A stretch of 58,968 bases of DNA, from positions 1 through 58,968 of the IMG/VR virus record IMGVR_UViG_3300037071_002299; one strand, 5' to 3'. The notes below the pieces were generated by a model, which was given only the letters and a program-made list of their open reading frames with translations, ran no database searches and was not told where the DNA came from. Positions within the stretch are counted from its first letter, which is position 1. Each line of letters starts with the position of its first letter. This DNA comes from a virus. Lineage: Duplodnaviria; Caudoviricetes. The translations under genes and the position numbers were made by a program. Shown piece after piece: positions 35,714 to 58,968 of the stretch.

Positions 35714-35745
35714 CGTCTATCTCCCGTGTTGCCTGAACAAGGTGC

Positions 35746-36138: not shown

Positions 36139-36218
36139 AGATTACGGCCGCGAATGATGTGCTGTCAATACTCGCTGTAATCGAACGCTTGACAGCCGGC
36201 GAATATGGCAGGTACTTT
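36139..36218. promoter_or_regulatory. Divergent sigma70-type promoters
   Basis: Leftward TTGACA(36168-36163)-N18-TAATCT; rightward TTGACA(36189)-N18-TACTTT. Confidence 0.65.
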
Positions 36219-36228
36219 GCGCTCCACT

Positions 36229-36438
36229 ATGAGAGCCATCAATCGAGCGATCGAGATTTTCGGCAGCCAACGGGAGTTCGCCGAACGCATCGGCGTCACG
36301 CAGGGACTGGTGTCGCGCTGGGCGCGCGGCGGCAGCGTCCACCAGCGTCACTTCCGCGCCATCCAGAAGGCCACCCGCGGCAAGGTAAAGCCCATTCATC
36401 TGCTGGACGATGAGCTGCGCAGGCCGAACGGCGGGTGA
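36229..36438 (+). CDS. Cro-like HTH regulator
   Basis: FGSQREFAERIGVTQGLVSRW...ATRGKV. Confidence 0.88.
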   Translation: MRAINRAIEIFGSQREFAERIGVTQGLVSRWARGGSVHQRHFRAIQKATRGKVKPIHLLDDELRRPNGG

Positions 36439-36658: not shown

Positions 36659-37459
36659 ATGAGGGCGCGTAACGTCAAACCCGGACTGTTCAAAAATGAA
36701 CAACTCGGCGGCGCCGATCCGCTCTACACCCTGATCTTTGAAGGGCTCTGGATGCTGGCGGATCGTGAAGGCCGGCTTGAAGATCGGCCGCTACGCATCC
36801 ACGCCGAGATCAACCCGTACCGGGCCGCGGACGGAACAATCGCGGCGGTCGATTGGCTCGTCGAGAATCGTTTCGTCATCCGCTACAAAGTGGACGGCGT
36901 GTCCTATCTTCAGATTCTGATGTTCCACAAGCATCAGAACCCTCACCAGCGGGAGTCGCCCAGCGAGATCCCGCCGCCGCCTGGTGGTGTGGACCGTTAT
37001 CTGCACGATCCGGTTACGGCCGAGCAACGAACCAGGATTCTGACTAGAGACGGCACTTGCCGACGGTGCGGGAGTGCGGAGAATCTTGAAGTCGATCATA
37101 TAGTTCCGCTGGCCCGGAGGGGTACATCCGAGGATGAAAACCTGCAGGCGTTGTGCGGTCCTTGTAACCGTCAGAAAGGAGCCAAGCATAGCCTAGGCAA
37201 TGGCAAAGCACAGCCTAGGCACGACCAAGGCACAGCCAAGGCTATGCCGAGCCCGGCTGATTCCGGATTCTCTGATTCCCCCTTCCTGATTCCGGATTCC
37301 TCTCTTCTCCGTTCTTCCTCTTCTGGTGATTTATCACCATCTCCATCTGGGGGGTTGTCAGGGGGGAGAGCGATTAAAAATCGCAACGAGAAGAAGCGGG
37401 CGGTCGACGCTGCCGTCCGTGGCATCGCCCAACAGAAAGCTTTCGGAGGCAAGCCATGA
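36659..37459 (+). CDS. Phage replication initiator-like protein with internal HNH domain
   Basis: RARNVKPGLFKNE..L, GLWMLADREGRLEDRP N-terminus; CRRC...DHIVP...NLQALC..CN HNH. Confidence 0.75.
   Translation: MRARNVKPGLFKNEQLGGADPLYTLIFEGLWMLADREGRLEDRPLRIHAEINPYRAADGTIAAVDWLVENRFVIRYKVDGVSYLQILMFHKHQNPHQRESPSEIPPPPGGVDRYLHDPVTAEQRTRILTRDGTCRRCGSAENLEVDHIVPLARRGTSEDENLQALCGPCNRQKGAKHSLGNGKAQPRHDQGTAKAMPSPADSGFSDSPFLIPDSSLLRSSSSGDLSPSPSGGLSGGRAIKNRNEKKRAVDAAVRGIAQQKAFGGKP
37184..37300 (+). repeat. Iteron-like repeats (putative origin inside initiator gene)
   Basis: GCATAGCCTAGGC / GCACAGCCTAGGC / GCACGACCAAGGC / GCACAGCCAAGGC at ~11-bp phasing, then TGATTCC repeats and a pyrimidine tract. Confidence 0.55.
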
Positions 37460-38357: not shown

Positions 38358-38392
38358 CGGCCATCGGGATTGACAACACACGGGAGATCGAC

Positions 38393-39751: not shown

Positions 39752-39805
39752 CCGGCATCCGCGTGAAGCACTTTCGCTTCTGATTCGATACACGGGAGAT
39801 TCCAA

Positions 39806-40342
39806 ATGTTGAGAGCAACGATAGCGACCGCGCTCCTCGCGGTCAGTGGTATGGCGGCTGCGGCGGACGACAGCAAGGGGCTGATGCTTGGCATCGCGGC
39901 CGGGCAGATCGATTACGACTCAGTTCTCGATATCGATGACACGTCAACTGCCTGGAAAGCCTACGCTGGCTACCGCTTCTCGCCGAACTTCACCACCGAA
40001 CTCGCTTACGTCGACGGCGGGGAGTACGGCGGGGAACTGGCGAGCGGTGTGCATGTCAGTGCTGACGTCACGGTCATCCAGCTTTCCGCGACAGGTGGCT
40101 GGTGGTTCAACGACGTGTTCGGTGCCTACGTGCGGGCGGCGTGGAACAACTACGACGCCAAGGTGCGTGCGAGCGCGTTCGGAATGACCGTCAGCGACGA
40201 CGTGAACGAGGATGAACTCGGCTATGGGGTCGGGCTGCAGGTGCTCTATGATCGATCACTGGTGCGCCTTGAGTACGAGACCGCGGACATCGAGGATAGC
40301 GACGTCAGCGTCGTATTCCTGAACGTCGGCTGGCAGTTCTAG
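39806..40342 (+). CDS. Outer membrane 8-strand beta-barrel (OmpA-TM/Lom-like)
   Basis: Sec signal peptide, YAGYRF..NF..EL.Y, GYGVGLQ, RLEYE, C-terminal GWQF. Confidence 0.88.
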   Translation: MLRATIATALLAVSGMAAAADDSKGLMLGIAAGQIDYDSVLDIDDTSTAWKAYAGYRFSPNFTTELAYVDGGEYGGELASGVHVSADVTVIQLSATGGWWFNDVFGAYVRAAWNNYDAKVRASAFGMTVSDDVNEDELGYGVGLQVLYDRSLVRLEYETADIEDSDVSVVFLNVGWQF

Positions 40343-40587
40343 TCATCGGGGGGGTGAGTGGGGGAGGTGGGGCGGCGCCCGGTCAGGGGCGCCGCCCCGG
40401 TTGCGCCGCGCCAACACCTTGCGGTACAAGACGGCTCGATAGCCCACCGTTGGGGGAGAGCCGATGGATCAGTTGCCAATTCGCTACGCCGCCGTCATGG
40501 CGGCGTAGTCGCATTTGCGCCTATGAACAGCAACCCCCGCGCCGGTTTCACGGAGAAGCAGGCACTCGATCTGCACAAGCAACTCCC

Positions 40588-40965
40588 ATGACCGTGTCTG
40601 CGGTCGATGACGTGCCCGATGAAATCGAAGGCCGCTTGGAACGGTGGGGCCATCTGGCTCGAGGCCGCTACGAGGATCTCGGCATCACCGATCGCAGTGT
40701 GCTCGCGCGAATCATCGAGGAAGGCGCGGGTGCCTGCCAAATATCCGATTGGGCAAGCCAGCACCTGCCCGATGACGTCGTAGAAGTAGACCAGGCCATC
40801 GCGCGCCTGCCCAACCGCTATCGACGCGCAATCAAGTTGCACTACATGACCGAACTCGATACGCAAACAAAGGCGAAAGAGATGGACACCTCACGCACCA
40901 ATTTTTTCTTGCTCGTCAACGCCGGGAAGGTCGGCGTCTACATGCGACTGGTCGCACACGTCTGA
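40588..40965 (+). CDS. Q-like antiterminator/sigma region 4-like regulator
   Basis: RLERWG N-terminus, VDQAIARL...IKLHY, C-terminal HTH. Confidence 0.65.
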   Translation: MTVSAVDDVPDEIEGRLERWGHLARGRYEDLGITDRSVLARIIEEGAGACQISDWASQHLPDDVVEVDQAIARLPNRYRRAIKLHYMTELDTQTKAKEMDTSRTNFFLLVNAGKVGVYMRLVAHV

Positions 40966-42759: not shown

Positions 42760-43497
42760 GTGGCTGATCTTACTTTACCGACGTTTGTTGCGGCTGGCAC
42801 GGTTGATGCGGGTGCGGCGAGCTGCGCGCCCGGCATTCCCGCCGGCTCGCAGCTCAACGACATCATGTATCTGCTTGTCACTACGAAGCGGCACTCGACA
42901 TGGGAGGCCACGGTCCCCGCTGACTGGACAGCAATTGGAACTCCGCAAGCGATTGGCACGGTCGATGGTTCGGCGTCAGTCCAGTTTCAGTCGTATTGGA
43001 AGAGGCACACAGGAAGCGAGTCGGCACCGTCCTGCACCGTCACCACGTCTGATTACATCCTCGCGCGCATCATTTCGATTCGCGGTGCGCCCAACAATGG
43101 AGTGCCGCACGAGGACGTGATTCAGACGACGGGCACAGCGACAACAAGCGTGGATTTTAATACGAATTTCCTCACGGGGCCGAAGCGCCTCATGCTTGGG
43201 TTCATTGCGGGCACGCGCGACGCAACCGCGACGAACACCTATTCGGCTTGGAGTTATGGATCGAACGGCGCGACCGAATGCATCGACAATTCAACGGCGA
43301 CGGGGGATGGAGGCAGCATCGGAGCAGCCTATTCCAGCGACGTGGACTTCGCGATGGCTGCCACTAGCTGGTTTAATGTGACGCAGTTATCGACTGCTTG
43401 GACGGCGACGTCCTTTGGCGTGATGCCGCGCGTCGATAACCTGCTGCCGCCCGTGATCGTGCCGCCGATGCGCGCACCCGGATACAGCAACAGATGA
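42760..43497 (+). CDS. Putative virion structural protein
   Basis: PTFVAAG, PAG...ND, beta-rich Thr/Ser/Ala composition. Confidence 0.6.
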   Translation: MADLTLPTFVAAGTVDAGAASCAPGIPAGSQLNDIMYLLVTTKRHSTWEATVPADWTAIGTPQAIGTVDGSASVQFQSYWKRHTGSESAPSCTVTTSDYILARIISIRGAPNNGVPHEDVIQTTGTATTSVDFNTNFLTGPKRLMLGFIAGTRDATATNTYSAWSYGSNGATECIDNSTATGDGGSIGAAYSSDVDFAMAATSWFNVTQLSTAWTATSFGVMPRVDNLLPPVIVPPMRAPGYSNR

Positions 43498-44495
43498 GCT
43501 ACACCCGCTGGCCGTACAGTGTGCGCACGCGCCCGCTGACGAAGCGGGTACCGCTGATCATTTACGGCCTGTCGATCTCGAGCGGCGACGGCGAGGTCTT
43601 CGACGTTGCACCGGACAACGCGACGCACGGCCATACGGTCAGCTCGCCGACGGTTGTCACCAGTTCGGTCGTCGTTCCTGCCAGTTGCACGCACAGTCAC
43701 ACCGTCACCGCGCCGACGGTGACGGCCAAGTTCGCCGTCGCCGCGGCGAGCTGTACTCACGGTCATACGGTGACCTCGCCAGGTATCGTCACCACGTCGA
43801 ACGTGGTGCCGGCGAGTTGCACACACGGGCACACGGTCACTGCCCCGACGGTCGTGACGAGTGCCGTCGTGGTGCCGGCCAACTGTACGCACGGTCATAC
43901 CGTCACCTCACCGAGCATTGTCACGACGACGTCCGTCGTCCCTGCGAGCTGCACGCACGGTCATACCGTCACCTCACCCGCGGTGGGGATGGGCACTGCG
44001 GTCCTGCCCGCGGGCTGCACGCACGGTCATACGGCGAGTTCACCGACCATCACGGTCGAGTACGGCATCACCCCGGCCAACTGCACGCACGGTCACACCG
44101 TCACTTCGCCCAACATCGCGACCGGCAGCGTCGTGCTGCCCGACGATGCGACGCACGGTCATTTCGTTTCGCAGTCAGCGGTGTGGCTGATCGCGCACGT
44201 CCTGCCCGCGAACTGCATACACGGCCACACCGCCTCGGCCTCGGCGATCGGCACCGGTATGCTCGTGATACCGGCGAGCTGCGTGCATGGTCACACCGCC
44301 ACCAGCCCGATCATTCGCGCCGCCGATGCACGACCGACGGAGTTCTGCGAGGTGGAACCGGAAGCGTGGATGGTTGCCGCCACTGCGGATGACCGGTGGG
44401 CCAGCACTCACAGCGAGATCGTTTTCTATCCGGTGGAGCCGGCGCCGCACTCCGTTGAAGTACTCAACGATGTGGCTTGTCGCGTAAGCCCTTGA
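43494..44495 (+). CDS. Fibre-like protein with 11 x 22-aa (C)xHxH repeats
   Basis: Repeat consensus VVPA(S/N)CTHGHTVTSP. Confidence 0.75.
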   Translation: MSYTRWPYSVRTRPLTKRVPLIIYGLSISSGDGEVFDVAPDNATHGHTVSSPTVVTSSVVVPASCTHSHTVTAPTVTAKFAVAAASCTHGHTVTSPGIVTTSNVVPASCTHGHTVTAPTVVTSAVVVPANCTHGHTVTSPSIVTTTSVVPASCTHGHTVTSPAVGMGTAVLPAGCTHGHTASSPTITVEYGITPANCTHGHTVTSPNIATGSVVLPDDATHGHFVSQSAVWLIAHVLPANCIHGHTASASAIGTGMLVIPASCVHGHTATSPIIRAADARPTEFCEVEPEAWMVAATADDRWASTHSEIVFYPVEPAPHSVEVLNDVACRVSP

Positions 44496-49398: not shown

Positions 49399-49529
49399 GA
49401 GACCTCCGATGGAAAACCCCAATCCCGTGCCGGATGAGACGCCCCCGGAGGACGACCCGGAGGATGGGGACGAGGACTGACGCCTGTCGCCCAGAATCGA
49501 CGATCGGCTGAACCCCCTCCCCTCCCACC

Positions 49530-50300
49530 ATGCCCGACCGTCCGCCTCAGCACGCGCCACGGGGGAGCCCCAGACGGCATTCGGTGGCGACCAACGACTG
49601 GGGCAAGTCGCGGGGCCGGAAGATGTCGAGCCGCCCATGGGAGCGGCTGCGGCAGCAGGTACTGGCACGGGACCGCTACCTCTGTCAGCGATGCCTTGCC
49701 TTTGGCCGGGTGACCCGTGCCACCGAGGTCGACCACGTCATCCCCCTCGAGCAGGGTGGTCGGGAGGACGATTCCCGCAACTGCCAGTCCCTGTGTCACG
49801 ACTGCCACCTCATCAAGACCGCCACAGAGCGCCGTGGGGCGGCGGCGCGGCCGGAGTGGCTACCGACCCCCCGCTGCCCCGTGACGCTGCTCACCGGGCC
49901 TCCGGGGGCCGGCAAGACGACGTATGCGCGGGCTCACCGGGCACCGGGCGACGTAGTGGTCGACTTGGACGACTGTTTCTTCGACATCTGCGGGGTCCAC
50001 GGGCACACCGCCGACCGCGCCCATCTGGGCGCCGCCCTGCGGTTGCGCAACGCCCGCTTGGCGGACTTGGCCCGCAAGTCGATCACCGGGCGGGCATGGG
50101 TCATCGTCGGTGCGCCAACGAGGGAGGAGGAGCAATGGTGGGTTACCAAGCTCGGCGACGCGCAGCACTTGAGGCTCGATCCCGGCGTCGAAGTCTTGCG
50201 GCTGCGTATCAGTCCGGCCCGTTTTCAGTTGGCGGAGCAGTGGTACGCCGAGCGCAATATCAGCCCGGTGGAGATCCAGTTGGCGGACCCGGTCTCCTGA
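49530..50300 (+). CDS. HNH endonuclease fused to P-loop NTPase
   Basis: RDRYLCQRC...VDHVIP...N.QSLC..CH..KT; GPPGAGKTT; VVDLD. Confidence 0.88.
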   Translation: MPDRPPQHAPRGSPRRHSVATNDWGKSRGRKMSSRPWERLRQQVLARDRYLCQRCLAFGRVTRATEVDHVIPLEQGGREDDSRNCQSLCHDCHLIKTATERRGAAARPEWLPTPRCPVTLLTGPPGAGKTTYARAHRAPGDVVVDLDDCFFDICGVHGHTADRAHLGAALRLRNARLADLARKSITGRAWVIVGAPTREEEQWWVTKLGDAQHLRLDPGVEVLRLRISPARFQLAEQWYAERNISPVEIQLADPVS

Positions 50301-50515
50301 TCAGCCCGGTCATTTTTCAGTGCGGCTGGAACTCGAGCCAGTGGCTGCGGCAGGTGCTGGCGCCACGGGAATGCGTCGACGCCTGCCTGCCCTCGCCGGT
50401 CGAGGAGGCATGGCTCGCCGACCTCGCGACCTGGTGGCCGGAGGTCAGCCCCGCGAATGCCGCGAGCCGTGCGGCATCAGCCCCGACGATATTCGGATTC
50501 CGCCGAACTCGCTGA

Positions 50516-50746
50516 TCAGTATCGCCACTCGCTGCCGACGGCCAGCTTGTAGGCGGTGACCGCCGCGCGGAACGCCTCGTACCACGCCAGAACCGCGTCG
50601 TCGGCTTTCGCCAGTTTCTTGAGCGCCGCGGGCGGTATGCGGTTGCCCTTGTAGTACGGGTTCCACCCGAAGTGCTCGCCACGGTCGGCGAGGGCGCGCG
50701 CGGTCTCGCTGAGTGCGCCTATGGACAGCTGCGTGGTTCGTTTCAC
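50516..50746 (-). CDS. Hypothetical early protein
   Basis: GTGA overlap with upstream gene. Confidence 0.55.
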   Translation of the reverse strand: MKRTTQLSIGALSETARALADRGEHFGWNPYYKGNRIPPAALKKLAKADDAVLAWYEAFRAAVTAYKLAVGSEWRY

Positions 50747-51072
50747 TGGCCCAACTCCACCCGGCCATCGACATAGACCGTGACGGCGCGCGCGCCCTTG
50801 CGGTACGTCTGGACGAGATCATCGCGATCCGGGTCCGTGCCCTCGTTGGAGATCATGACGGTCGCGCGGCGCTCGGAGGCGACGTCTTGGGCGAGCGCGA
50901 TGGCGACGACGAGGTCGGTGCAATCGCCTGCGTACTTGCCCTCGCACCAAAGGTAATAGCTGATCGGGAGCCGTTCCGCGATCGCGATCAGCCGCTCGCC
51001 GCTCGGCAGCAATTTGCCGTCGATCATGTAGTCGTTCAGCGCCAGTGAGTGTAGCCATTGGCGGTCGTTCAT
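50743..51072 (-). CDS. Hypothetical early protein
   Basis: CACGGGAG RBS. Confidence 0.7.
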   Translation of the reverse strand: MNDRQWLHSLALNDYMIDGKLLPSGERLIAIAERLPISYYLWCEGKYAGDCTDLVVAIALAQDVASERRATVMISNEGTDPDRDDLVQTYRKGARAVTVYVDGRVELGQ

Positions 51073-51116
51073 GTGTTGCTCCCGTGTGAAAGTTAGAAAA
51101 TCAGCCTGTCAGGATT

Positions 51117-51437
51117 TCAGTTCTCCGGCTGCGTGCGCAGTGAGCGCGCCGGGCGGATGTCCCGCAGCGTCACGTCGATCCGCATCAGCAGTTCCGGTGA
51201 CATATCATCGGCATCGAGCAGTGCGGCACGCGCGCGCGTGAGCACTTCCAGCAGTTCGCACCGCTCGGTCTGAGCCTTGAGCATGGCCGTGCAGATGCGC
51301 TCCGCGACCGAGCGCGGGTTGTCGCTGCCGTTGCCGCTGCCAACGTCGGCATCCAGATAGTGCAGCGCGGCGGTGCGTACCTGCGAGAAGAAGTCGAACC
51401 AGGACGTGCTGCCGAGCGTTGACGTGTTGTCTTTCAT
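51117..51437 (-). CDS. Hypothetical early protein
   Basis: GGAG RBS before MKDNTS; stop inside 22-bp motif. Confidence 0.65.
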   Translation of the reverse strand: MKDNTSTLGSTSWFDFFSQVRTAALHYLDADVGSGNGSDNPRSVAERICTAMLKAQTERCELLEVLTRARAALLDADDMSPELLMRIDVTLRDIRPARSLRTQPEN

Positions 51438-51481
51438 TGTGGTTTCTCCAAGTGGATGTGCGGGATCAGCCCGTCGAATTT

Positions 51482-51688
51482 TCAGTCGATTGGCCGGATC
51501 AGTTTCGCCCCTTCCCACGGCATGTAGCCGCCGTAGTCGTCGCGGGCGCGCATGATGATGACAGCATCCATCGCCGCAGGCCGCGACGTGAAGGGGCCGT
51601 CGGCATCGCGCCAGAGGCCAAAGCGGCGGCGCTGGACGTAGAATGTCCATCGCTGGCGCTCGATTCGTTGCACGATTCGTCGTTTCAT
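51482..51688 (-). CDS. Hypothetical early protein
   Basis: CACGGGAG RBS before MKRRIV; stop inside motif. Confidence 0.65.
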   Translation of the reverse strand: MKRRIVQRIERQRWTFYVQRRRFGLWRDADGPFTSRPAAMDAVIIMRARDDYGGYMPWEGAKLIRPID

Positions 51689-51716
51689 CGTCGTCTCCCG
51701 TGTGAAGGGGCTGCGA

Positions 51717-51977
51717 TCAGCCCCGTGAATTTTCAGTCGTTGTCGGCGCAGGCCGCAAGGGTGCTGGATTGCGCACGCAGAGCCGGTGTCCGTACTTCTC
51801 CATGAACAGGCCGCCCGGTGCGATGCGCTCGATGGCCTCGCGGATTTCCTCGGCAGCGAAGCCAGGTTCATCGTAGTCGGTCGCCCGCGTGCCCAGTTCC
51901 TTCGCGCAGAGCATCGTCATGTCTGCGAAGAAATCGTATAGGTCGGCGTAGCAAGGACTCTCTCGTTTGGTCGTCAT
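51717..51977 (-). CDS. Hypothetical early protein
   Basis: CACGGGAG RBS before MTTKRE; stop inside motif. Confidence 0.65.
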   Translation of the reverse strand: MTTKRESPCYADLYDFFADMTMLCAKELGTRATDYDEPGFAAEEIREAIERIAPGGLFMEKYGHRLCVRNPAPLRPAPTTTENSRG

Positions 51978-52003
51978 GTGTTTCTCCCGTGTGTGTGTGT
52001 CAG

Positions 52004-52030
52004 AAAAGGGGCGGGCTCGCAACCCGCCCC
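52004..52030 (-). terminator. Intrinsic terminator after DUF932-like gene
   Basis: Minus strand GGGGCGGG-TTGCGAG-CCCGCCCC-TTTT. Confidence 0.7.
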
Positions 52031-52037
52031 AGTTCAC

Positions 52038-53114
52038 TCATGCCGCCTGTCGGAGTTCCGCCCCGGCGACCCGCTGCCAGTCGGAGCGGGGCAAGGTGAT
52101 GATGTTGCCGCCGATCTTCTCCAACTCGGTCGCCCGGTCGTAGCTCTCGGCATCGTTCGCCAGATTGGTCACGGCATTCGCCATGCCGTAGAGCGTGTAG
52201 TCGCGGCCCTGTATGAGTCGTTCCAGCACGCTCTCCTGCTCGCCTTGCAGCAGCCCGACCGTCTTGGCGAGCAACTGCACGGCAGCCTGCGGGCTCTTGA
52301 CGGGCTCGGTATCCGCCGCATCGCGTAGCTTGGCGACGATCTTATCCAGCATCACTTCGCTGGTGGCCGCGCGGATCATGTCGCGCATCTTGAGCAGGAT
52401 TGCGGAGTCCTCGGCGCGCATGGTGTCCTCGGCCAGCACGACCCCCTCGGGCAGTTCCAGGCGCGAGCCGACGTGTGCGCGCCGCCACTTGTACTCGGCC
52501 ACGACCATGCCGTTTGTGCAGCGCAGCCGCTCGATCCACGGATCGACGTAGAGCGAGCCGTCGCCAATCTCGGAGTTGCCGATGATGACGCCAGCACGCA
52601 CCGGGTCGCCCACCTTGACGTCGCGCAGCAGGCTCGTCACCACCGCCTTGATGTAGAGCCGCCGCTCGGTGACTTCGCAACTCACCACCTGCACGTCGGA
52701 GCGTTCCAGCAGGGCCGGCAGCGTCGTCTCCGCGACGTGTTCATGGTCGATGCGCTGGTAGCGGTCAGAGAGCAGCGCACGGGCCGAGCCGTCGAGCGTG
52801 CGGACCATGTGCCGCGCGTCGGACTTACGGAACCAGTGATTGACGTTGCGCTCCCACAGGTCGGAGTCCGACTCGCCCAGCAGGCGGTCGTAGTACGCCT
52901 TGGCAATGCCAGTCTTCTCGGCAATCTGCCCGTGCGTGTGCTGGTTGACGTTGAACAACTCATCGCCCGCACCGTTGACGAACAGGGTGGGCGCACGATC
53001 GAGGCCCATGCGCGTTGCGCTGATGTGCTGTGCGGGCACGATGTAGTCGTGCTTCGCACCTGATTGCCGCATGATTTCAGCGGCGAGTTCCTGCAAGTTT
53101 CTGCCTGTTTTCAT
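52038..53114 (-). CDS. DUF932-like protein
   Basis: RALLSDRY, I.NSE.G.GS, RLRCTNGM, R.HVG, NAVT motifs. Confidence 0.8.
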   Translation of the reverse strand: MKTGRNLQELAAEIMRQSGAKHDYIVPAQHISATRMGLDRAPTLFVNGAGDELFNVNQHTHGQIAEKTGIAKAYYDRLLGESDSDLWERNVNHWFRKSDARHMVRTLDGSARALLSDRYQRIDHEHVAETTLPALLERSDVQVVSCEVTERRLYIKAVVTSLLRDVKVGDPVRAGVIIGNSEIGDGSLYVDPWIERLRCTNGMVVAEYKWRRAHVGSRLELPEGVVLAEDTMRAEDSAILLKMRDMIRAATSEVMLDKIVAKLRDAADTEPVKSPQAAVQLLAKTVGLLQGEQESVLERLIQGRDYTLYGMANAVTNLANDAESYDRATELEKIGGNIITLPRSDWQRVAGAELRQAA

Positions 53115-53148
53115 GGTCGAAAGTCTCCCGTGTGGTTGATGGAAAAAA

Positions 53149-53520
53149 TCAGCCCGTGGCGTTCTGAGTCAGGCGGGCAAAGAGCGTGTGCGGGAACAGA
53201 AACCGCTTGCCGTCATCGCGCGCCGCAATGATCTTGCTGCCTCGGTTCGCACCGACGACCGTGAAGGTGCGTACACCCTGCTTGAAGGTTGTGCCGAGCG
53301 CGGGCAGCTTATCGTCGTACTTGCGGCGCATCTCGTACTCTGCGGCCTGCCTGTCGAGCCCGCCCTCGACGACGCCCTCGACCGAAAAGGTGAAGGAGTC
53401 GTCGCGGTACTTGCACCCGTCTGCCGTCAGCGACTTGAGCCCGTGACGCTTCGCGACCTCGACCAGTGCGGCGTCGATGTCGGCGCGCAGAACGCGCAGG
53501 AAGTCTCTTGAAATGGTCAT
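53149..53520 (-). CDS. Hypothetical early protein
   Basis: CACGGGAG RBS; stop inside motif. Confidence 0.7.
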   Translation of the reverse strand: MTISRDFLRVLRADIDAALVEVAKRHGLKSLTADGCKYRDDSFTFSVEGVVEGGLDRQAAEYEMRRKYDDKLPALGTTFKQGVRTFTVVGANRGSKIIAARDDGKRFLFPHTLFARLTQNATG

Positions 53521-53567
53521 TGATGGTCTCCCGTGTTGAGTGGAGGCGGGATCAGCCCGCCGAAGTT

Positions 53568-53768
53568 TCAGTTGAGAGTATGCGCCCGTGACCTGTCACT
53601 GGTCAATGCCTCGTACTCTTGGTCAAGGTAGTCAAGCAGATACTTGACGTAACCCGTGGCGAGCCGGTATCCGTCGAAGTCGAACTCCTGGTCGAATCGC
53701 TCGCACGCCTCGCAAAAAGCGTTGCGCAGCCGCTCGACCCGCGCGGGTGTGAATGTGATGGTCTGCAT
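53568..53768 (-). CDS. Hypothetical early protein
   Basis: CACGGGAG RBS; F.FDG..L...Y.KYL..YL; stop inside motif. Confidence 0.7.
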   Translation of the reverse strand: MQTITFTPARVERLRNAFCEACERFDQEFDFDGYRLATGYVKYLLDYLDQEYEALTSDRSRAHTLN

Positions 53769-53815
53769 GGTCGTGTCTCCCGTGATGGTGGATGGAAAAT
53801 CAGCCCGTCAGGATT

Positions 53816-54127
53816 TCAAGTCAAATCGGCAGCATCGTCGTCAAATTCGTTAATGTCGCGAATCACGCGACCTGTCTCACGCACCGCTTGCGCGATCACT
53901 TCTAGGCTGTCCGAGCCCCATTCGGTGCCGTCGAGTACTTGGTGAATACACTCAACTGCCTCGGTGTCTGTAATCGTCGTTCGCTCGTCCCGCTCGCGCG
54001 CGACGTTGGCGCGGCGCTTGGCCTCACTGGCGATGCGGTCCATGAGCGCGATGTACTCGGGCAGTTCCGGCCCGCCGAGTTCCTCGGCTTGCTGTAGCGC
54101 GTCGAGAATGTCTGTTTCGATGGTCAT
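53816..54127 (-). CDS. Acidic hypothetical early protein
   Basis: CACGGGAG RBS; stop inside motif. Confidence 0.7.
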   Translation of the reverse strand: MTIETDILDALQQAEELGGPELPEYIALMDRIASEAKRRANVARERDERTTITDTEAVECIHQVLDGTEWGSDSLEVIAQAVRETGRVIRDINEFDDDAADLT

Positions 54128-54170
54128 GTCAGTCTCCCGTGTTGAGTGGAAAAATCAGCCCGTGCGGTTT

Positions 54171-54740
54171 TCAGTGCGGGCAGGGTCCGGTGTAGTGCGG
54201 GCCGTTGCTGCGCTCGCACTCATCGCACCCGTTCGGACTGCCGAAGCCGTGCGCCTCGGCCAGCCGGTCGATGATGCGAGTGGCGACCGCGCGATCGAAT
54301 CCCAGGCGCGCCTGGAAGTCGTCGAGCATGTCGAGCATCTCGTCATAGCGCGATGGACTGTCGAGGCACTCGACCTGTTCCAGAAAGAGCCCGCCGAGGC
54401 CGAGCCGGTGCATCTCGCGCCCCGCGTCCGCGATGGCGTCGGGAATGAGTCCGGTATCAGCCCGCCGGTATCCGAGTTCAGGGTGCGCAAGCGCAGTCCA
54501 TGCCGCGCCGCCCGTCAGGCGGGACACGTCGCCCGCGTTCGGCGGCGCATCGCGCTCGTCCAGTACGGCGATGCACGCCCAATCGAAGCGAGCCTCATGC
54601 ACGGCAGTCACTTGGCAGAGCAGGCGTCCAGCGTGCCAGCCCGTCAGCCCCTTGCCCGACCACGGGCGGCGGAATTCGGAAACGAATATCGCCCCCGGCT
54701 GAATGTCGTCCCGCGTGAGGCGGTTCACGGCTGCACCCAT
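54171..54740 (-). CDS. Hypothetical early protein with C-terminal CxxC..H..C.H
   Basis: Operon chain; stop inside motif. Confidence 0.6.
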   Translation of the reverse strand: MGAAVNRLTRDDIQPGAIFVSEFRRPWSGKGLTGWHAGRLLCQVTAVHEARFDWACIAVLDERDAPPNAGDVSRLTGGAAWTALAHPELGYRRADTGLIPDAIADAGREMHRLGLGGLFLEQVECLDSPSRYDEMLDMLDDFQARLGFDRAVATRIIDRLAEAHGFGSPNGCDECERSNGPHYTGPCPH

Positions 54741-54928
54741 CGCGGCAGGTCGGACGGATACTCAGTCCCGTCGAGCGCGTCCAAGCAGACGGCGCGGTCC
54801 GGTCCCCTGACGGAGAAGATGGTCGCCACACTTTCCGGGTCGCGATGGATGCCTAATGCCTGTTCCGCAGCATCCAGTTCTGACTCGGCCTCGACTTCGA
54901 TGTACCAGACAACCTGATAGGCGGTCAT
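54725..54928 (-). CDS. Hypothetical early protein
   Basis: ATGA overlap; Y.V.W.I.VEA.S...AA. Confidence 0.65.
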   Translation of the reverse strand: MTAYQVVWYIEVEAESELDAAEQALGIHRDPESVATIFSVRGPDRAVCLDALDGTEYPSDLPRWVQP

Positions 54929-55254
54929 GGCTGCACCTTGGCGAGTGCGGCGTGGGCTGCTGTCAGTACGTTGTGTTCTCGCACGCTTTCAAGAATGCCG
55001 CGCGATGTGGTATTGGATCGTGACGCTATTGCGTCACGCGACGCCCACTCTGCGTAAGTCTCGACTCGCTCGATCAGCGACGACAGCGCCGCGTACAGGT
55101 CGGGCGCAGCGGCGATAAGTGATTCGTTGCGCGCCGCGTCGTCGTTATGGTCGCTGAATACAACGCAGACTTCGGCACCGTTTGCGCCGAAAATGCGGCC
55201 ATTGGATCGGTCCACGGTCCACGGTCCCGGTGTGAAATTGGTGTGCTTGGTCAT
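54925..55254 (-). CDS. Hypothetical early protein (TPGPW...LIAAAPDL family)
   Basis: CACGGGAG RBS; widespread phage TPGPW/AAAPDL motifs. Confidence 0.75.
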   Translation of the reverse strand: MTKHTNFTPGPWTVDRSNGRIFGANGAEVCVVFSDHNDDAARNESLIAAAPDLYAALSSLIERVETYAEWASRDAIASRSNTTSRGILESVREHNVLTAAHAALAKVQP

Positions 55255-55306
55255 GTTGTCTCCCGTGTCAGTTGGTGAATCAGCCCGTCGAATTTTCAGT
55301 TCGGCT

Positions 55307-55335
55307 TTTATACTCCGTGACATGTCCACAGTCAA
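55307..55335 (-). promoter_or_regulatory. Early promoter with operator in spacer
   Basis: Minus strand TTGACT-N17-TATAAA; spacer contains GGACATGTCAC. Confidence 0.7.
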
Positions 55336-55706
55336 GGAGTCGTATCAGCCCGGTCAATTTTCAGTCCTATCAGCCCGTCGAATTTTCAGTTGATGGACTC
55401 GACCTGGCGTTCCAGGCGAGCTCTATCAGCCCGCGTAAAATTCAGTCGAGCCGCTATCAGCCCGCCCGATTTTCAGTTCGGCATCAGCCCGACCAAGTTT
55501 CAGTTTCCTGGCCAGGCATCAGCCCAAGCGATTTTCAGTTCGCAGCCGTGACAGGCGCAGCCCGCCAGCAAGGCGCAGCCGCACCGCTCGATAGCACGGC
55601 TTTCGGGCGCGCGGCAGCCGCAACAGTTATGTTGCTTTTTGGGCGCAGCCGCGCAGCCGCAAGGCAGCAACAGTCGCAGTCGCGGTAAGGCAACAGCCAC
55701 CGTCGA

Positions 55707-55848
55707 GGCAGCAGCCGTCAGGGCAGCAGCCGTCAGGCAGCAGCCGTCAGGCAGCAGCCGTCAGGGCAGCAGCCGTCAGGCAGCAGCCGTCAGGCAGCAG
55801 CCGTCAGGCAGCCACCGTCAGGGCAGCAGCCGTCAGGGCAGCAGCAGC
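55707..55848 (+). repeat. Tandem repeat (G)GGCAGCAGCCGTCA, 9 full copies plus partial
   Basis: 14/15-bp units read directly; one variant GGCAGCCACCGTCA. Confidence 0.95.
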
Positions 55849-55910
55849 GATGTAGGAACGCGCAAGGGTGTGCCGGTAGTGTGCCTCCCGTGACGTGACA
55901 AGTAGTCTGG

Positions 55911-55941
55911 AAAGGGCCGCTAGCGCGTGCTAGCGGCCCTT
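55911..55941 (-). terminator. Hairpin terminator after amidotransferase gene
   Basis: 13-bp perfect stem AAGGGCCGCTAGC-GCGT-GCTAGCGGCCCTT. Confidence 0.7.
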
Positions 55942-55948
55942 GTCCACA

Positions 55949-56770
55949 CTACTCGCGACCGCGCGAGAATAGACCGCGACACATTTCGGAAATGTAGTCG
56001 CGCGAGTCGTCGCGCGCGTCTTGCTCTCGCGCCGAGTCGTCGATTGTGTCCACGTCACCGTCAAACTGATTTAGCGGCGCATATGGCGATGATTGGTACT
56101 CGCCCCATGTCTCTGTGTTGTGCCAGTCAAAATCGCTGCTAGGTGCTCTCACGGTCGCAGGAAGCACGCGCGTGGCCTTTGCCGTTGTCTTGCGCGTGTA
56201 CGCGCGCCAATGAATTGCAGCCGTGTCTGGTGCTACCAGCGAATAGGTATTGCTGTACCAGATGCCGCGACACCAGTCGCCCCATGTCTCGTGAACGATT
56301 GAAAAGTCGCGGCCATCGTCGGACATGAAAAGCAAGCGTGAGCCGTAGGTGTCTTGCTCGACTTCGGACAGCCATGCATCGCGGTCTGTACGACGCGACG
56401 AGTAGTACGGCAGATATTCGCGACAGAAAAGTGAAGTGTCCGATTCGCTGTCAGTCGCGAAACGCGCCGTTTGCGATAGCACGCCATTGTGCATCACAAA
56501 ATCGCCAGTTTCGGGAACGCGGAAAGGATGCGTCAGCGCGCGTCCTACGCGACCGTGAGTCGCGTATCGGAAGTGCACTGCATAGGGTATGCCCGCATGC
56601 GACAGGTACTGTGCATACCGCCACGCGCGGCGCGTGCTGCGCTTGCCGTTGAATTTCTCGACACCATCCGCAGACATGATGCCAATACCGTCCGCGTTAT
56701 CGGCCGCAGCAGACTGAAAGTCGAGTCGTGCGGGTAAATCCGCGTGCTTTGCAAACATGATTAGACACAT
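55949..56770 (-). CDS. Class II (Ntn) glutamine amidotransferase
   Basis: N-terminal MC, N.DG.G, HFRYATHG, HPF, MHNG, SDT. Confidence 0.9.
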   Translation of the reverse strand: MCLIMFAKHADLPARLDFQSAAADNADGIGIMSADGVEKFNGKRSTRRAWRYAQYLSHAGIPYAVHFRYATHGRVGRALTHPFRVPETGDFVMHNGVLSQTARFATDSESDTSLFCREYLPYYSSRRTDRDAWLSEVEQDTYGSRLLFMSDDGRDFSIVHETWGDWCRGIWYSNTYSLVAPDTAAIHWRAYTRKTTAKATRVLPATVRAPSSDFDWHNTETWGEYQSSPYAPLNQFDGDVDTIDDSAREQDARDDSRDYISEMCRGLFSRGRE

Positions 56771-56797
56771 AGAAAAGTCTCCCGTGTGAGTGAACGA

Positions 56798-58003
56798 TTA
56801 AAGATCGGAAACGGCCGCAGCCGCCGCGAACTGTGCTGGTGCTGGCGCGCGTGCTGGCATGAAACCGGCAGCGCGCAAAAAGCACGTCAGATGCGCATAC
56901 GTCTTGCTACGTGCGGCGAGCCAATCAAGAAACGGCTGCGGCTGTTCGACATCGCGCATGCTGGCAGTCGCGCAATACGTGAGAATGGCGTGGCAAAATT
57001 CCAGGTTTTTAAGCACGCGCTCCGGTCGCAGATTGCCGCGAAACAATCGAAATTCGATGGTCTGACGGCCGCTGATATTCAGCAGGTCGTAGCGGCTCGC
57101 GCCTAGCATGCCGCCGTCTTTGATGCGCTTGCGAGTGTCGCGGACGCAGTAGTTACTGCCACCGGATTCTCCTTCCGTCAGCAACGGTCGCTGTGCAATG
57201 GCGCGAACCAGCGCGTGGTTACCATTGCAATTCAAAAATACCAGTGTCTTGCCAATCTGTAGCGGCGACAGTGCGCGGCGATTCGCATGGATGTGGATTC
57301 CGCAGCGATTCGTTCCTGCACCGGAACGCGCGCGACGCGCTAACGGCTGGAGCAATGCCGGCCAGTTGAAGGATTGCGCATGCTGATCCAGCGTATACGG
57401 CAGTGTCACTAACTCAATGCCGCTGTCGTAATTCAGCGAGCCGTCAGATTTGAGAATGTACCGGCCATCGCCATGCTTGCCGCCAAGCATGCGCACGACT
57501 GTTTCGCGGTCTGTCGTGGTTTCCATCTCAAGCTCAACACCGAAGCACAGCGCATGCCGCGATGTTTCGCGCGGCCATCCGTGTACTTCCAATACATCCG
57601 TGCTGTAGTCGGCTAGCGTGTCTTGATCATCTTCTTCTGCACTGTCGTGCCACGCGTCGTCGGATTCCCAGTAGTACAAATGGTCGCAAGCGTAGGCATA
57701 GGTCGAGTGTTCGCCAGTGTCTCCGCAATACACGGTTTCGCCATTGTTGAAGCACGGCATACACCACGCTTCGCGCCGACGCAGAGCGGTGCGCAGTTCC
57801 TGCATGCTGTCGCAGTCAGTCAATTCCTCGCATGAGCCGCAAGGCGTCGCATGATCGGCTGCGCATGCATCGCACCATGTTTGCTCGATTCCGCGCCGAC
57901 CGACTTGCACGGTAAGCGCGCTGTCGGTGTCGGTCGCTGCGTCGCAGTGCGCGCAGACTATCGAATCCTCGGCAGCCGTTTCGTTTTGAGTGTCAGTTGT
58001 CAT
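56798..58003 (-). CDS. Putative amidoligase (COOH-NH2 ligase) with N-terminal CxxC repeats
   Basis: FGVELE, KSDGSL, IELVT, CGIHIH, RY..LN, TIEFRLF. Confidence 0.88.
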   Translation of the reverse strand: MTTDTQNETAAEDSIVCAHCDAATDTDSALTVQVGRRGIEQTWCDACAADHATPCGSCEELTDCDSMQELRTALRRREAWCMPCFNNGETVYCGDTGEHSTYAYACDHLYYWESDDAWHDSAEEDDQDTLADYSTDVLEVHGWPRETSRHALCFGVELEMETTTDRETVVRMLGGKHGDGRYILKSDGSLNYDSGIELVTLPYTLDQHAQSFNWPALLQPLARRARSGAGTNRCGIHIHANRRALSPLQIGKTLVFLNCNGNHALVRAIAQRPLLTEGESGGSNYCVRDTRKRIKDGGMLGASRYDLLNISGRQTIEFRLFRGNLRPERVLKNLEFCHAILTYCATASMRDVEQPQPFLDWLAARSKTYAHLTCFLRAAGFMPARAPAPAQFAAAAAVSDL

Positions 58004-58028
58004 AGGGATCTCCCGTGTGAGTGAAAAG

Positions 58029-58232
58029 TTAGTCGTCGGTCGCGAGAATTGCGCGCGCGCGCTCGATTAGCGCATACGCATCGCGCGCCTTGCTGTACCC
58101 GAGAATGGCAACAGCATCGGCAAGCGCACCGTCCAGTGCGATCGGCTCTTGCTCGCGCAGTGCGCGCGCGACATTGACCAGCACAGTTACTGTGTGTAGC
58201 GACTTCGGCAGGGCATGGGGTCGAGTAGGCAT
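58029..58232 (-). CDS. Hypothetical protein, first gene of terminal operon
   Basis: CACGGGAG RBS before MPTRPH. Confidence 0.6.
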   Translation of the reverse strand: MPTRPHALPKSLHTVTVLVNVARALREQEPIALDGALADAVAILGYSKARDAYALIERARAILATDD

Positions 58233-58270
58233 GTCATTCTCCCGTGTGAGATAGAAAGTTAACGCGCGCG

Positions 58271-58414
58271 AGTATACCAGCGGACATGTCACGTCAACGG
58301 GCATCGGTCGCAATTCTTATAGCGCGTGCTTATCACACTGCGCGACCTTATAACCTAATGACATGTCACCGGAACGGGCATCGTCCCGCGTTTCAGGTTA
58401 TTAAGACATGTCAC
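58271..58414 (-). promoter_or_regulatory. Promoter with three GACATGTCAC operators
   Basis: Minus strand TTGACG...TGG-TATACT; operators at 58283, 58360, 58405; first two share flanking AACGGGCATCG. Confidence 0.6.
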
Positions 58415-58968
58415 GTTAGAAGCAAACGGTATGAGCTTGGCAAGGGCGCGCGGATGCCATAGGACAGCATAAGAGCCGCTGAGAGCCGACTTGAGCCGAC
58501 CCGCTACCTAATCCACGGCTGCCAGTTATCAACAGGGTTATGCACAAGATATACAGTCAGGAAAATCCGTGACTTGCAGGCTGTGCATATGTGCATAACT
58601 TTCTAAATCGGTCCGGCACAGGCTAAACAAAGCAAGAGCCGTGCCATGTGACATGTCGAATAGCGGGGCGCGCGACCCTATCAGACTGCACGGCAATGCA
58701 CGCGCAGCGCACAGGGCAGCGCACAGGGCAGCGCCTGCGGCGACACTGTGCATGTCGCGCTCGACGCGCTCGACGCTAGCGGGTATCGACGCGCGGCCAT
58801 GCACGCGAACGCGCCCGACAGGGCAGCACAGGGCAGCGCGTCCGGACCTTGCGGGGTCGTTCCGCGCGGCAAACGAGCAACAACGGCTGCAAGTACCAAA
58901 AACGCGACTGCCGGGCGGGTCCTACGAAATTCTTGGCGCCTCGCCGGGGACCGCGCCCGCGTCTCTTC

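Follow-up and report, generated by a model that had tools for sequence, protein, structure and literature searches.

A co-oriented, two-block 22-bp word repeated along one 12-gene block of a soil phage genome

The subject of this work is a 22-bp DNA word, ATCAGCCC-N6-WTTTCAGT, that is repeated in a single orientation along a block of 12 genes in a phage genome (Duplodnaviria; Caudoviricetes). The window that we analyzed is the entire IMG/VR virus record IMGVR_UViG_3300037071_002299, a linear stretch of 58,968 bp with a guanine-plus-cytosine (GC) content of 62.9% and a CheckV completeness estimate of 83%. Its left 28 kb encodes terminase, a protease-capsid fusion, portal, tape measure and tail proteins, the two largest open reading frames (ORFs) being those of the tape measure and a tail protein. 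This part is followed by a leftward block with a RecE-like exonuclease (phrog_434, 2.5e-67) next to a phrog_3657 protein, a methyltransferase and HNH genes, and then a rightward block with a Cro-like helix-turn-helix (HTH) protein and a replication initiator bearing internal tandem repeats. The later rightward genes terminate with an HNH+AAA gene at 49530-50300, and from 50516 to about 58235 the record is coded wholly on the minus strand. The 12-gene block lies within the final 15% of the record, which begins at the terminase genes, like many relatives' contigs. Proteins were annotated with Pfam and PHROGs on about 60 ORFs of the window.

A preliminary description of this sequence had reported about 18 co-oriented copies of the word in one segment only. 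Allowing up to 3 mismatches, we find 19 matches, all on the plus strand and all within 50208-55539 (9 exact, 5 with one mismatch, 2 with two and 3 with three), where 100 dinucleotide shuffles average 0.34 and never exceed 2. With no more than 2 mismatches there are 16 forward matches and 0 reverse ones, and the control pattern written backwards gives 0 in both orientations. A position weight matrix (PWM) built from the 19 copies carries 31 bits, and scanning it over both strands, as the same description had proposed, sets the copies at 20.3-37.6 bits and everything else on the two strands of the 58,968 bp at 12.0 or below. On the coding (minus) strand the word takes the form ACTGAAAAT-N4-CGGGCTGAT. 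The two TCAG half-sites noticed earlier indeed lie 16 bp apart, at positions 2-5 and 18-21 of a site that is not palindromic. Half-sites alone occur elsewhere in the record at about chance frequency, which rules out Chi-like or avoided half-sites.

The block itself consists of 12 minus-strand ORFs running from 55254 to 50516, all of which end in TGA (Table 1). Copies sit at 7 of its 11 junctions, in keeping with the claim that single copies mark most of them; three of the other junctions are overlapping gene pairs and one carries a terminator-like hairpin, so that 7 of the 8 non-overlapping junctions are occupied. One degenerate copy falls inside the 189-aa ORF. The dense cluster of seven copies at the right edge was found as described, within 55279-55539, as were the three copies at the left edge, two of them inside the 3' end of the HNH+AAA gene, to which a fourth, weaker copy at 50476-50497 is now added. 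Six copies do lie upstream of the promoter proposed at 55307-55335; the promoter itself is a by-eye consensus match that is weaker still in the two related contigs described below, and the promoter scan did not list it, its second hexamer being without the final T.

Table 1. Site copies, genes and other features of the 12-gene block in order of transcription, followed by a candidate trans factor encoded elsewhere in the window (aa, amino acids; pI, isoelectric point)
Feature	Position	Strand	PWM score or remark
Site copy 1, upstream array (ACTGAAAATCGCTTGGGCTGAT)	55518..55539	-	30.9 bits; same 22-mer as first array copy of L298
Site copy 2, upstream array	55483..55504	-	33.3 bits
Site copy 3, upstream array	55456..55477	-	35.2 bits
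Site copy 4, upstream array	55425..55446	-	29.2 bits
Site copy 5, upstream array, consensus 22-mer	55369..55390	-	37.6 bits
Site copy 6, upstream array; end 8 nt ahead of -35-like hexamer	55344..55365	-	36.1 bits
Sigma-70-like promoter, TTGACT (55335-55330)-17-TATAAA (55312-55307)	55307..55335	-	By-eye consensus match
Copy 7 nt after -10-like hexamer (predicted +1 to +22), 24 nt before ATG of first gene	55279..55300	-	37.6 bits
Gene 1, 109 aa, phrog_1273 (function unknown)	54925..55254	-	
Gene 2, 67 aa, pI 4.1; 4-nt overlap with gene 1, without site	54725..54928	-	
Gene 3, 189 aa; degenerate copy at codons 88-95	54171..54740	-	
Degenerate copy inside gene 3; first half decayed, second intact	54456..54477	-	21.2 bits
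Junction copy; TGA stop of gene 3 at positions 3-5	54154..54175	-	33.5 bits
Gene 4, 103 aa, pI 4.1	53816..54127	-	
Junction copy; TGA stop of gene 4 at positions 3-5	53799..53820	-	24.7 bits
Gene 5, 66 aa	53568..53768	-	
Junction copy; TGA stop of gene 5 at positions 3-5; promoter-like match 53606-53577 ahead	53551..53572	-	33.5 bits
Gene 6, 123 aa, pI 9.6; Atlas lead Y4mA_C-like	53149..53520	-	
Junction copy; TGA stop of gene 6 at positions 19-21	53148..53169	-	25.2 bits
Gene 7, 358 aa, DUF932 / phrog_1362	52038..53114	-	Pfam, PHROGs
Terminator-like hairpin, 10 pairs, 8 of them GC, then TTTT	52008..52030	-	Sole non-overlapping junction without site
Gene 8, 86 aa	51717..51977	-	
Junction copy; TGA stop of gene 8 at positions 19-21	51716..51737	-	33.4 bits
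Gene 9, 68 aa, Arg-rich N-terminus, pI 11.1	51482..51688	-	
Junction copy, consensus 22-mer; TGA stop of gene 9 at positions 3-5	51465..51486	-	37.6 bits
Gene 10, 106 aa	51117..51437	-	
Junction copy; TGA stop of gene 10 at positions 3-5	51100..51121	-	29.1 bits
Gene 11, 109 aa	50743..51072	-	
Gene 12, 76 aa, pI 9.8, last of block	50516..50746	-	
Weak copy 19 nt past stop of last gene	50476..50497	-	20.3 bits
Distal copy starting on last base of convergent HNH+AAA stop codon	50300..50321	-	33.7 bits
Distal copy within last 14 codons of HNH+AAA ORF (opposite strand)	50259..50280	-	26.7 bits
Distal copy in C-terminal tail of HNH+AAA ORF (opposite strand)	50208..50229	-	28.9 bits
Candidate trans factor (lead), 125-aa Q21-like protein, sigma-70 region-4 type HTH	40589..40965	+	

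Two features of the junctions go beyond the spacing of genes and sites. At all seven occupied junctions the word itself contributes the TGA stop codon of the upstream ORF, from positions 3-5 in five cases and from positions 19-21 in the other two, a point that the preliminary description did not contain. From the end of the word it is then 26-33 nt to the next ATG, across a linker that is almost free of G (5 G in 122 nt) and leads into a strong Shine-Dalgarno (SD) sequence within a conserved extended ribosome-binding site (RBS), ACACGGGAGA. The extended RBS occurs 12 times on the minus strand and twice on the plus strand, and the (A)CACGGGAGA form 13 times on the minus strand and 4 times on the plus strand of the record. 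The CACGGGAGA copies whose context was inspected, all but two plus-strand ones, lie just before the starts of non-structural genes in three transcription units, among them the RecE-like gene, its neighbor, the amidoligase gene upstream of the block and several rightward genes, and no structural genes (examples are 55259-55267, 54133-54141, 53776-53784, 35720-35728, 34798-34806, 56778-56786, 58009-58017, 38379-38387 and 39791-39799). Since this RBS is also found outside the block, the junction consists of two separable elements, of which only the 22-mer is private to the block. The extended RBS resembles a start-associated sequence, and four copies are also present in L298, one of the related contigs.

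The distal copies run into the convergent HNH+AAA ORF (Pfam HNH 5.8e-13, AAA_33 1.8e-9), two strong ones lying within its last 31 codons. The homologues listed for this protein align only to residue 229 of 256, so that these copies occupy a C-terminal tail not common to the homologues. Read on the plus strand, the consensus word is free of stop codons in all three frames, and the ORF may for that reason read through the distal copies.

The element is also present in other DNA. A pattern of two neighboring copies has exactly two matches in metagenome contigs of the Joint Genome Institute (JGI), both from soil: L297 (1,577 bp, four copies) and L298 (1,076 bp, five copies and a shortened junction copy). 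Each has a GC content of 59% and no other DNA similarity to the window, and comparison of their proteins with those of the window gives one marginal similarity (E 0.008). In both contigs the copies are oriented as the local ORFs, and the array ends 12-14 nt upstream of a TTGNNN hexamer, which is followed by an AT-rich hexamer 18-19 nt later, a leader of about 40 nt, an RBS and an ATG; taking all three contexts, an array of 4-6 copies ends 8-14 nt before TTGNNN with an AT-rich hexamer 17-19 nt on. In L298 an upstream ORF has its TAA directly against the first array copy; past the array, a 20-nt form of the word supplies the TGA that closes the next gene, and the CACGGGAGA RBS again follows.

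The three arrays align colinearly with large indels between copies, and identical 22-mers recur between contexts (the first copy of the window and of L298, and the third of L297 with the fourth of L298). In this alignment, which was guided by the copies themselves, pairwise identity in the core columns is 86/90, 69/72 and 53/54 (96-98%), in the inner spacer it is 8/20, 3/16 and 4/12, and outside the copies it is 76/138, 54/116 and 47/127 (19-55% for spacer and outside sequence). High identity in the core beside a drifted spacer and drifted surroundings indicates that the copies, including those far from any ORF, have been kept by selection. A lack of conservation elsewhere, which the preliminary description had named as a refuting result, is not what we find: the two contigs keep the word arrays with the sequence between and around them diverged. 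A word that stays letter-perfect in three genomes differing in GC and gene content fits recognition by a host factor or by a factor that travels widely among these phages.

Pooling the 19 window copies with the 4 of L297 and the 5 of L298 gives a set of 28, in which the information falls into one block at positions 1-9 and another at 14-22. No variation occurs at positions 16 and 18-22, at least 25 of the 28 copies agree at positions 1-7, 15 and 17, and the inner spacer varies in sequence and keeps a constant length. Every one of the 28 copies is oriented as the local genes are. With its strict co-orientation, its confinement to one module and its conservation in two further contexts, the word system is a real, sharply bounded, evolutionarily conserved cis-element with a distinctive architecture, and a constant length with two specified blocks around a free centre is usually the mark of a protein reading duplex DNA. 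In the window the starts of the upstream copies are 35, 27, 31, 56 and 25 bp apart, then 65 bp across the promoter, without helical phasing; stacked copies with no ORF between them are separated by 3-43 nt. Such irregular spacing (25-65 bp) is as expected of sites bound independently. An IHF-like (integration host factor) match, WATCAR-N4-TTR, was discarded by eye, the TTR part landing in the variable spacer.

Beyond these two contigs, searches of phage, plasmid, IMG/VR and genome collections gave no arrays. As a single word the pattern matches 77 IMG/VR contigs once each, in 13 distinct 22-mers, most of which we assign to conserved and presumably coding stretches in two prophage families that are widespread; 197 of the loci (1.70 Mb), rescanned with the PWM, contain no arrays. 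Among 185,579 species genomes the array pattern has 0 matches, the single word at least 120 singletons, and the junction pattern 10 singletons in unrelated taxa, about the number expected by chance. A blastn search with the array returned nothing in phages and, in plasmids, two 26-nt chance matches in portal genes, and megablast of 50000-56000 gave no close relative among cultured phages. Searches of IMG/VR proteins with the DUF932, 273-aa and HNH+AAA proteins and with a 199-aa protein of L297 produced no matches. The large terminase subunit (TerL) is 62-70% identical to that of many IMG/VR contigs (80 loci), yet none of 91 relatives' loci (11 found by amidoligase and 80 by TerL; 1.37 Mb) has the word at 18 bits or more. 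In species genomes TerL is closest to that of prophages of Xanthomonas maliensis (65%) and Stenotrophomonas (63-65%), so that the host is probably a GC-rich proteobacterium. The record is tied to 14 soil metagenome DNA runs, and the four that were mapped yielded low-depth fragments identical to the window only, with no variants or joints at site copies in them. Two 22-mers of the word are absent from searchable papers (supplementary files and subscription journals lie outside such a search), where 8-mers and 11-mers of the word turn up only in unrelated primers and promoter fragments; we found no prior description of the word in the searchable literature or in phage, plasmid or Rfam libraries.

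Our preferred, tentative reading is that the 22-bp word marks the sites at which a single DNA-binding protein would exert polar control over the block, an operator array combined with orientation-dependent blocks within the operon, and regard this as a possible rather than a probable account. Protein binding on DNA, repression rather than activation and the polar effect are all steps that we infer. On this account the 12 genes at 50.5-55.3 kb would be the regulon of the putative protein, and the shape of the site suggests that its two blocks, set at a constant separation, are read by a monomer with two domains or by two molecules arranged head-to-tail. The six stacked sites upstream of the sigma-70-type promoter, with the one at +1, would form a high-occupancy operator, and elongating RNA polymerase would be blocked, in an orientation-dependent manner, by the single intercistronic sites together with the three to four sites past the last gene. 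Acting jointly, the sites could permit the small accessory genes to be switched off all at once and could insulate them against read-through in either direction. We are least sure of the sign of regulation: the copy at +1, the stacked copies and the distal copies, which would guard the convergent late genes, favor repression or shut-off, and the internal terminator and a Q-like protein encoded in the record favor antitermination. The preliminary description had likewise proposed a protein-binding system that delimits the module. An element confined to one module and bracketing it agrees with this, though no binding protein was identified; its suggestions of coating, DNA entry and recombination, and the "early" timing that it had assumed, found no direct support in the analysis.

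Several results weigh against this reading. The intrinsic terminator within the block fits antitermination at least as well, and a roadblock model leaves unexplained both the supply of stop codons at 7 of 7 junctions and the spacing of 24-33 nt to the ATG. Neither L297 nor L298 has a copy between the putative promoter and the first gene. None of the promoter candidates in the window, L297 and L298 was called by the promoter scan, and because these calls are weak the upstream arrays may themselves be transcribed. Features linked to RNA or translation, set out below, are real and unaccounted for by a DNA model. Among the roughly 60 ORFs scanned in a record that is 83% complete we saw no integrase or CI-like repressor, Pfam and PHROGs gave no match to an immunity repressor, and nothing points to lysogeny; the Q-like family has a single match among 185,579 species genomes, of 22 residues in Streptomyces and judged spurious. 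With no integrase, no CI-like repressor and no real prophage match of that family, prophage silencing, which is the purpose of the L5 stoperators, may not apply.

The search for a binding protein adds to these points. None of the 12 block proteins has a DNA-binding domain by Pfam or PHROGs, and a 68-aa protein encoded at 58029-58235 (minus strand) was ruled out as the binder, since the 28 IMG/VR loci that carry its relatives have 0 PWM matches at 13 bits or more. That protein belongs to a family found in 28 IMG/VR contigs of 42% to 63% GC; its N-terminus, PKSLHTVTVLVxVAR, is invariant in 13 homologues of 45-58% identity and has, in our reading, the look of a ribbon-helix-helix-type strand. Sequence searches of the PDB with three block proteins gave nothing useful, and the Atlas, which offered a Y4mA_C-like lead for the 123-aa protein and none for the 189-aa one, gave no sign of DNA binding either. 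DNA-binding signatures among the scanned ORFs are limited to the Cro-like HTH protein (phrog_35, 36205-36438), whose neighborhood holds an ordinary inverted repeat GCTGTCAA...TTGACAGC, and to the 125-aa protein listed last in Table 1.

The features linked to RNA raise an alternative in which the 22-nt word is a signal in a polycistronic mRNA, read single-stranded by a protein or the ribosome and serving to process the transcript into monocistronic pieces, to protect 3' ends, or to couple the termination of one ORF to the initiation of the next. RNase III sites between the early genes of T7 process mRNA in the first of these ways. The co-orientation of all 28 copies with local genes speaks for such a signal, as does the position of the junction copies, 24-33 nt before the next ATG, with an almost G-free linker and a strong SD to follow. 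All seven junction copies hold the upstream TGA and no such ORF ends ahead of the site; in L298 a TAA abuts the first array copy, and the shortened junction copy again supplies a TGA. One copy would stand at the predicted transcript +1 and four in a 3' untranslated region. The stop-codon use of the word may be secondary, as the word stops any ORF entering it in two of the three frames. That 0 of the 7 junction ORFs end before the word then has a chance of (2/3)^7, about 0.06, if frames are random and ORFs in frame b keep their own stops, so that a translation-linked constraint is not to be dismissed.

Other results speak against this alternative. RNAalifold finds 0 conserved pairs in the 28 copies with 12-nt flanks, and Rfam has 0 matches at E up to 1 in 49500-58968 on both strands. 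Recognition of about 16 specified nucleotides of unstructured RNA, as this would need, is unusual in bacteria. No RNA function suggests itself for the 4-6 stacked copies that, with no ORF nearby, are conserved in three contexts ahead of the best promoter candidates; such stacks are easier to explain on DNA, an argument rather than a proof. Pairing of the second half of the word with the 16S 3' tail (-6.0 to -7.8 kcal/mol, in the top 4-12% of random 10-mers) is unremarkable, and pairing to the anti-SD sequence was therefore set aside. A boxB-like hairpin presenting CUGAAAA was likewise ruled out: hairpins with the copies' own flanks average -1.99 kcal/mol and those with permuted flanks -1.60 +/- 0.24, with 5.6% of 500 permutations as low, a weak test, and most junction copies have no stem. 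A whole-array fold z-score of -4.6 arises from unrelated GC palindromes. We consider an RNA-level role unlikely, though the likeliest of the alternatives. The earlier preference for a DNA-level role thus stands as far as it rests on a linear two-block word of fixed length without a fold, and is weakened in that all copies could be transcribed.

In place of a repressor, the polar DNA-bound protein could be a positive factor. The 125-aa protein has a near-threshold Sigma70_r4_2 match (24.8 bits, cut-off 25.7) and a weak PHROG Q-like match (E 0.006), and its homologues are labeled sigma-24 family by one source; that the record encodes such a protein had not been noted in the preliminary description. 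Its AlphaFold2 (AF2) model (pLDDT, the predicted local distance difference test, 69.5) superposes over 55-63 C-terminal columns on region 4 of extracytoplasmic function (ECF) sigma factors at 1.2-1.8 A, and the best whole-chain template modeling (TM) score, 0.56 by query, is with the antiterminator Q21, all Foldseek E-values being 0.05 or more. A GC-rich hairpin at about 40380-40410 precedes the gene, which is the first of a rightward unit; the next ORF starts 21 nt on, so that no obvious late promoter follows. Two region-4-type HTH protomers could then load head-to-tail on the CTGA-containing blocks and let RNA polymerase read through the internal terminator after the DUF932 gene, a positive and processive control. 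Signals of the Q type are DNA elements in two parts with a set orientation, a Q-binding element and, beside it, a pause element, and the copy at +1 to +22 of the promoter suits such a signal. Known Q factors, however, load once, at a promoter-proximal sigma-dependent pause, and not at every junction kilobases downstream. Here 18 of the window copies are not promoter-proximal, L297 and L298 have no copy between putative promoter and first gene, the -10-like hexamer in the second block is without an A at position 2, and no copy lies near the Q-like gene. The Q-like family has 0 matches in five related genomes. We hold this possibility to be decidedly unlikely; if the Q21-like protein did prove to be the reader, the result would be multi-site antitermination, a mode not described for Q factors.

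The sigma-region-4-like protein also enters into a further alternative, that each copy is a promoter for a non-standard RNA polymerase (phage-modified or an alternative holoenzyme), giving every gene a start of its own and the first gene tandem starts. Copies that are co-oriented 24-33 nt upstream of start codons, and arrays resembling clustered phage promoters, would suit this, and the first block holds a -10-like GAAAAT, which the scan of L298 pairs, in the next copy, with a TTGAGA of the spacer. The geometry does not: the blocks are 4-7 bp apart as against the 16-18 bp of sigma-70 or ECF promoters, and the GG/GC spacing of sigma-54 is absent. Fits to sigma-70, ECF, sigma-28 and sigma-54 promoters were rejected by eye on this ground of block spacing. 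No RNA polymerase gene was seen in the window, three strong copies aim into the 3' end of the convergent gene where there is no ORF to serve, and one copy is already downstream of a good sigma-70-type promoter. Together this makes promoters an improbable explanation.

A different light is thrown on the junctions by gene 3, whose decayed copy falls where the Atlas model's matches to shorter stand-alone proteins end. The protein, which has a Cys/His-rich C-terminus, is possibly a fusion of two former genes or cassettes with the decayed copy as the relic of a junction, on weak evidence. The word could accordingly be a cassette boundary that serves, or results from, recombination shuffling small accessory genes between related phages, helped by the phage's RecE/RecT-like genes (the RecE-like exonuclease is encoded beside the phrog_3657 protein); it joins unrelated genes in three contexts, with ORFs ending exactly in the word, and elements between small genes of T4-like phages provide a precedent (PMC4122927). 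Recombination in register would nonetheless leave one copy, not stacks of 4-6 separated by 3-43 nt, and the stacked copies are under strong purifying selection that their surroundings are not. There is no attC-like hairpin, no integron-type integrase was seen among the scanned ORFs, and the low-depth identical fragments of the four mapped runs show no joints at copies. We judge cassette exchange very improbable as the basis of the element.

The strictly oriented direct repeats, with arrays overlapping the promoter, are of iteron-like length (22 bp), and their block falls within the final 15% of the record, at the opposite end from the terminase genes with which it begins. They could for that reason form a polar DNA-handling signal, such as iterons, a centromere, sites orienting a replication fork or translocase, or a T5-like stop for stepwise DNA entry, located at whichever genome end goes in first. 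A spacing as irregular as 25-65 bp, half-sites at chance level elsewhere, and single junction copies that double as stop codons are not what such signals would lead one to expect, no par genes were seen among the scanned ORFs, and the replication-initiator gene (36659-37459) has separate ori-like tandem repeats of its own. The latter, at 37184-37301, consist of three 22-nt repeats and six CTGATTC/CGGATTC heptamers, and are probably the origin; the gene also has an HNH-like insert. A DNA-handling role is in our view highly improbable.

Returning to the operator array of a polar DNA-binding protein, the closest parallels come from actinobacteriophages. The account of Cluster A stoperators (L5 gp71-type) in PMC9283540 describes asymmetric sites at the promoter and in short intergenic gaps, with orientation tied to transcription, and one protein presumed to act on both initiation and elongation. 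The comparison with stoperators drawn earlier holds for distribution and orientation as given there: many asymmetric copies lie at the promoter and in gaps, here with 19 of 19 co-oriented and 7 of 8 non-overlapping junctions occupied. The sites themselves differ, being here a 22-bp, two-block word with a variable centre as opposed to a 13-mer, and confined to one 5.3-kb block in arrays of 4-7 as opposed to more than twenty sites over a whole genome. The host here is probably proteobacterial. The gp71-type protein of Cluster A is a monomeric repressor with HTH and Stoperator domains. By this analogy the word would work like L5-type stoperators without being a member of that family, and we judge the element to be of the multi-site oriented operator kind. 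A fuller version of this idea supposes a stoperator-style system evolutionarily unrelated to the actinobacteriophage one, with the word read by a factor common to otherwise unrelated soil phages, the arrays acting as protein-dependent insulators or terminators at both ends of an anti-defence-type block, and the word at junctions doubling as a stop; this we regard as somewhat unlikely.

In Cluster K phages the start-associated sequence (SAS) and extended SAS (ESAS) offer another comparison, and in the accounts of PMC3203893 and PMC12699233 their function is still unknown. The ESAS is described there as paired imperfect 17-bp inverted repeats with a variable spacer, located upstream of the SAS (PMC3203893, PMC12699233). 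The likeness is a two-tier junction in one orientation, here the extended RBS ACACGGGAGA plus an upstream element at about half of the RBS-bearing genes. The differences are that our word has no dyad and is a fixed 22-mer with a direct CTGA repeat, that the SAS consensus GGGATAGGAGCCC and the RBS ACACGGGAGA are analogous in position only, and that ORF-less promoter arrays and stop-codon use do not form part of the Cluster K elements as described in PMC3203893 and PMC12699233.

Three further systems invite comparison with the word. The PeSLs (promoter-early stem-loop cassettes) of T4-like phages, as outlined in PMC4122927, combine an early host-type promoter with a terminator hairpin between small genes and are plausible exchange points; they too are short conserved units repeated between small, variable and mostly uncharacterized genes, but here there is no stem-loop and the blocks are 4-7 bp apart, not 16-18. 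The CUP elements of the IncN plasmid leading region are, in the account of PMC6289460, a repeated operator before establishment and anti-restriction genes, bound by the ArdK repressor. They are a functional analogue of such an arrangement, and comparable genes are present here (DUF932, the amidoligase neighbors and small acidic proteins); their core is about 13 nt and lies at promoters, and that account does not describe them as arrays, intra-operon sites or stop donors (PMC6289460). The Q-binding element (QBE) and pause element of the Q21 type resemble the word as an oriented bipartite promoter-side signal, with a small protein of region-4-like fold encoded here, and differ in being a single promoter-proximal site per operon, set against 19 copies most of which are far from the promoter. 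Integron cassettes carry an imperfectly palindromic attC behind every ORF, along with an IntI integrase and attI; the word has neither palindrome nor hairpin and stands in stacked ORF-less copies, and no integrase was seen among the scanned ORFs. Iterons of Rep-type origins are direct repeats in phased tandem order, next to rep or inside it, and differ from the word in its irregular spacings and in a rep-like gene (36659-37459) with repeats of its own.

Repeated oriented words at gene junctions are known from few phage groups, namely those with L5 stoperators and with the SAS/ESAS of Cluster K, and in the accounts cited the function of the latter is open after 14 years (PMC3203893, PMC12699233). 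The element described here is a clean small example outside Actinobacteria, a word of about 31 bits in a 12-gene block, with its arrays kept in genomes that are unrelated. Should the word act as an insulator or as a protein-dependent, polar block to elongation, such silencing or timing of potentially toxic accessory genes would have arisen more than once, and the word would be a compact, portable regulatory part; if it is instead read on RNA or by a Q-like factor, it would represent a new type of junction signal. Either way, the small proteins that it encloses (several of them very acidic), together with the DUF932 protein and the products of the neighboring amidoligase genes, would form a co-regulated set and are candidates for host take-over or anti-defence.

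Some observations concern other parts of the window and of the related contigs. In the rightward half, nine 66-nt tandem repeats (43611-44299, plus strand; 22-aa units with CTHGHT-like motifs) lie inside a 333-aa ORF at 43494-44495, in the rightward block from which a Laminin_G_3 protein and a GP4 gp77-like fibre adaptor are also encoded. An outer-membrane beta-barrel protein (OMP_b-brl, 5.4e-13; 39806-40342, plus strand) is placed, moron-like, after the early-right genes and ahead of the Q-like gene. Among the products of the operon that precedes the array (55949-58003, minus strand) are an Amidoligase_2 protein, which has Cys-rich motifs at its N-terminus, and a protein of 273 aa, which begins with MC... 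and may be an N-terminal-nucleophile amidotransferase; such a pair is typical of mobile-element accessory regions.

In L297 the genes upstream (minus strand, junctions near 940-870 and 660-585) carry another junction unit, composed of CCTTGACGGTT, a GC hairpin, CCGTGAATGCTTTCC(C)CAGTCCCCAC and then AGCGAGGGTTA before the start codon, so that this phage has two junction systems side by side. Between array copies a palindrome CCTGGCCAGG (55503-55512 in the window) or a CCTGG...CCAGG hairpin recurs in the window and in L297, in the latter around 145-160 and 262-275 (minus strand), with a related GC hairpin in L298; it may be a second element of the array. Finally, ten tandem units of 14/15 nt (55700-55845; CTGACGGCTGCTGC(C) on the minus strand) lie between the hairpin of the upstream operon at 55939-55914 and the site array, and a similar GGCTG-rich run is found about 110 nt upstream of the array in L298.

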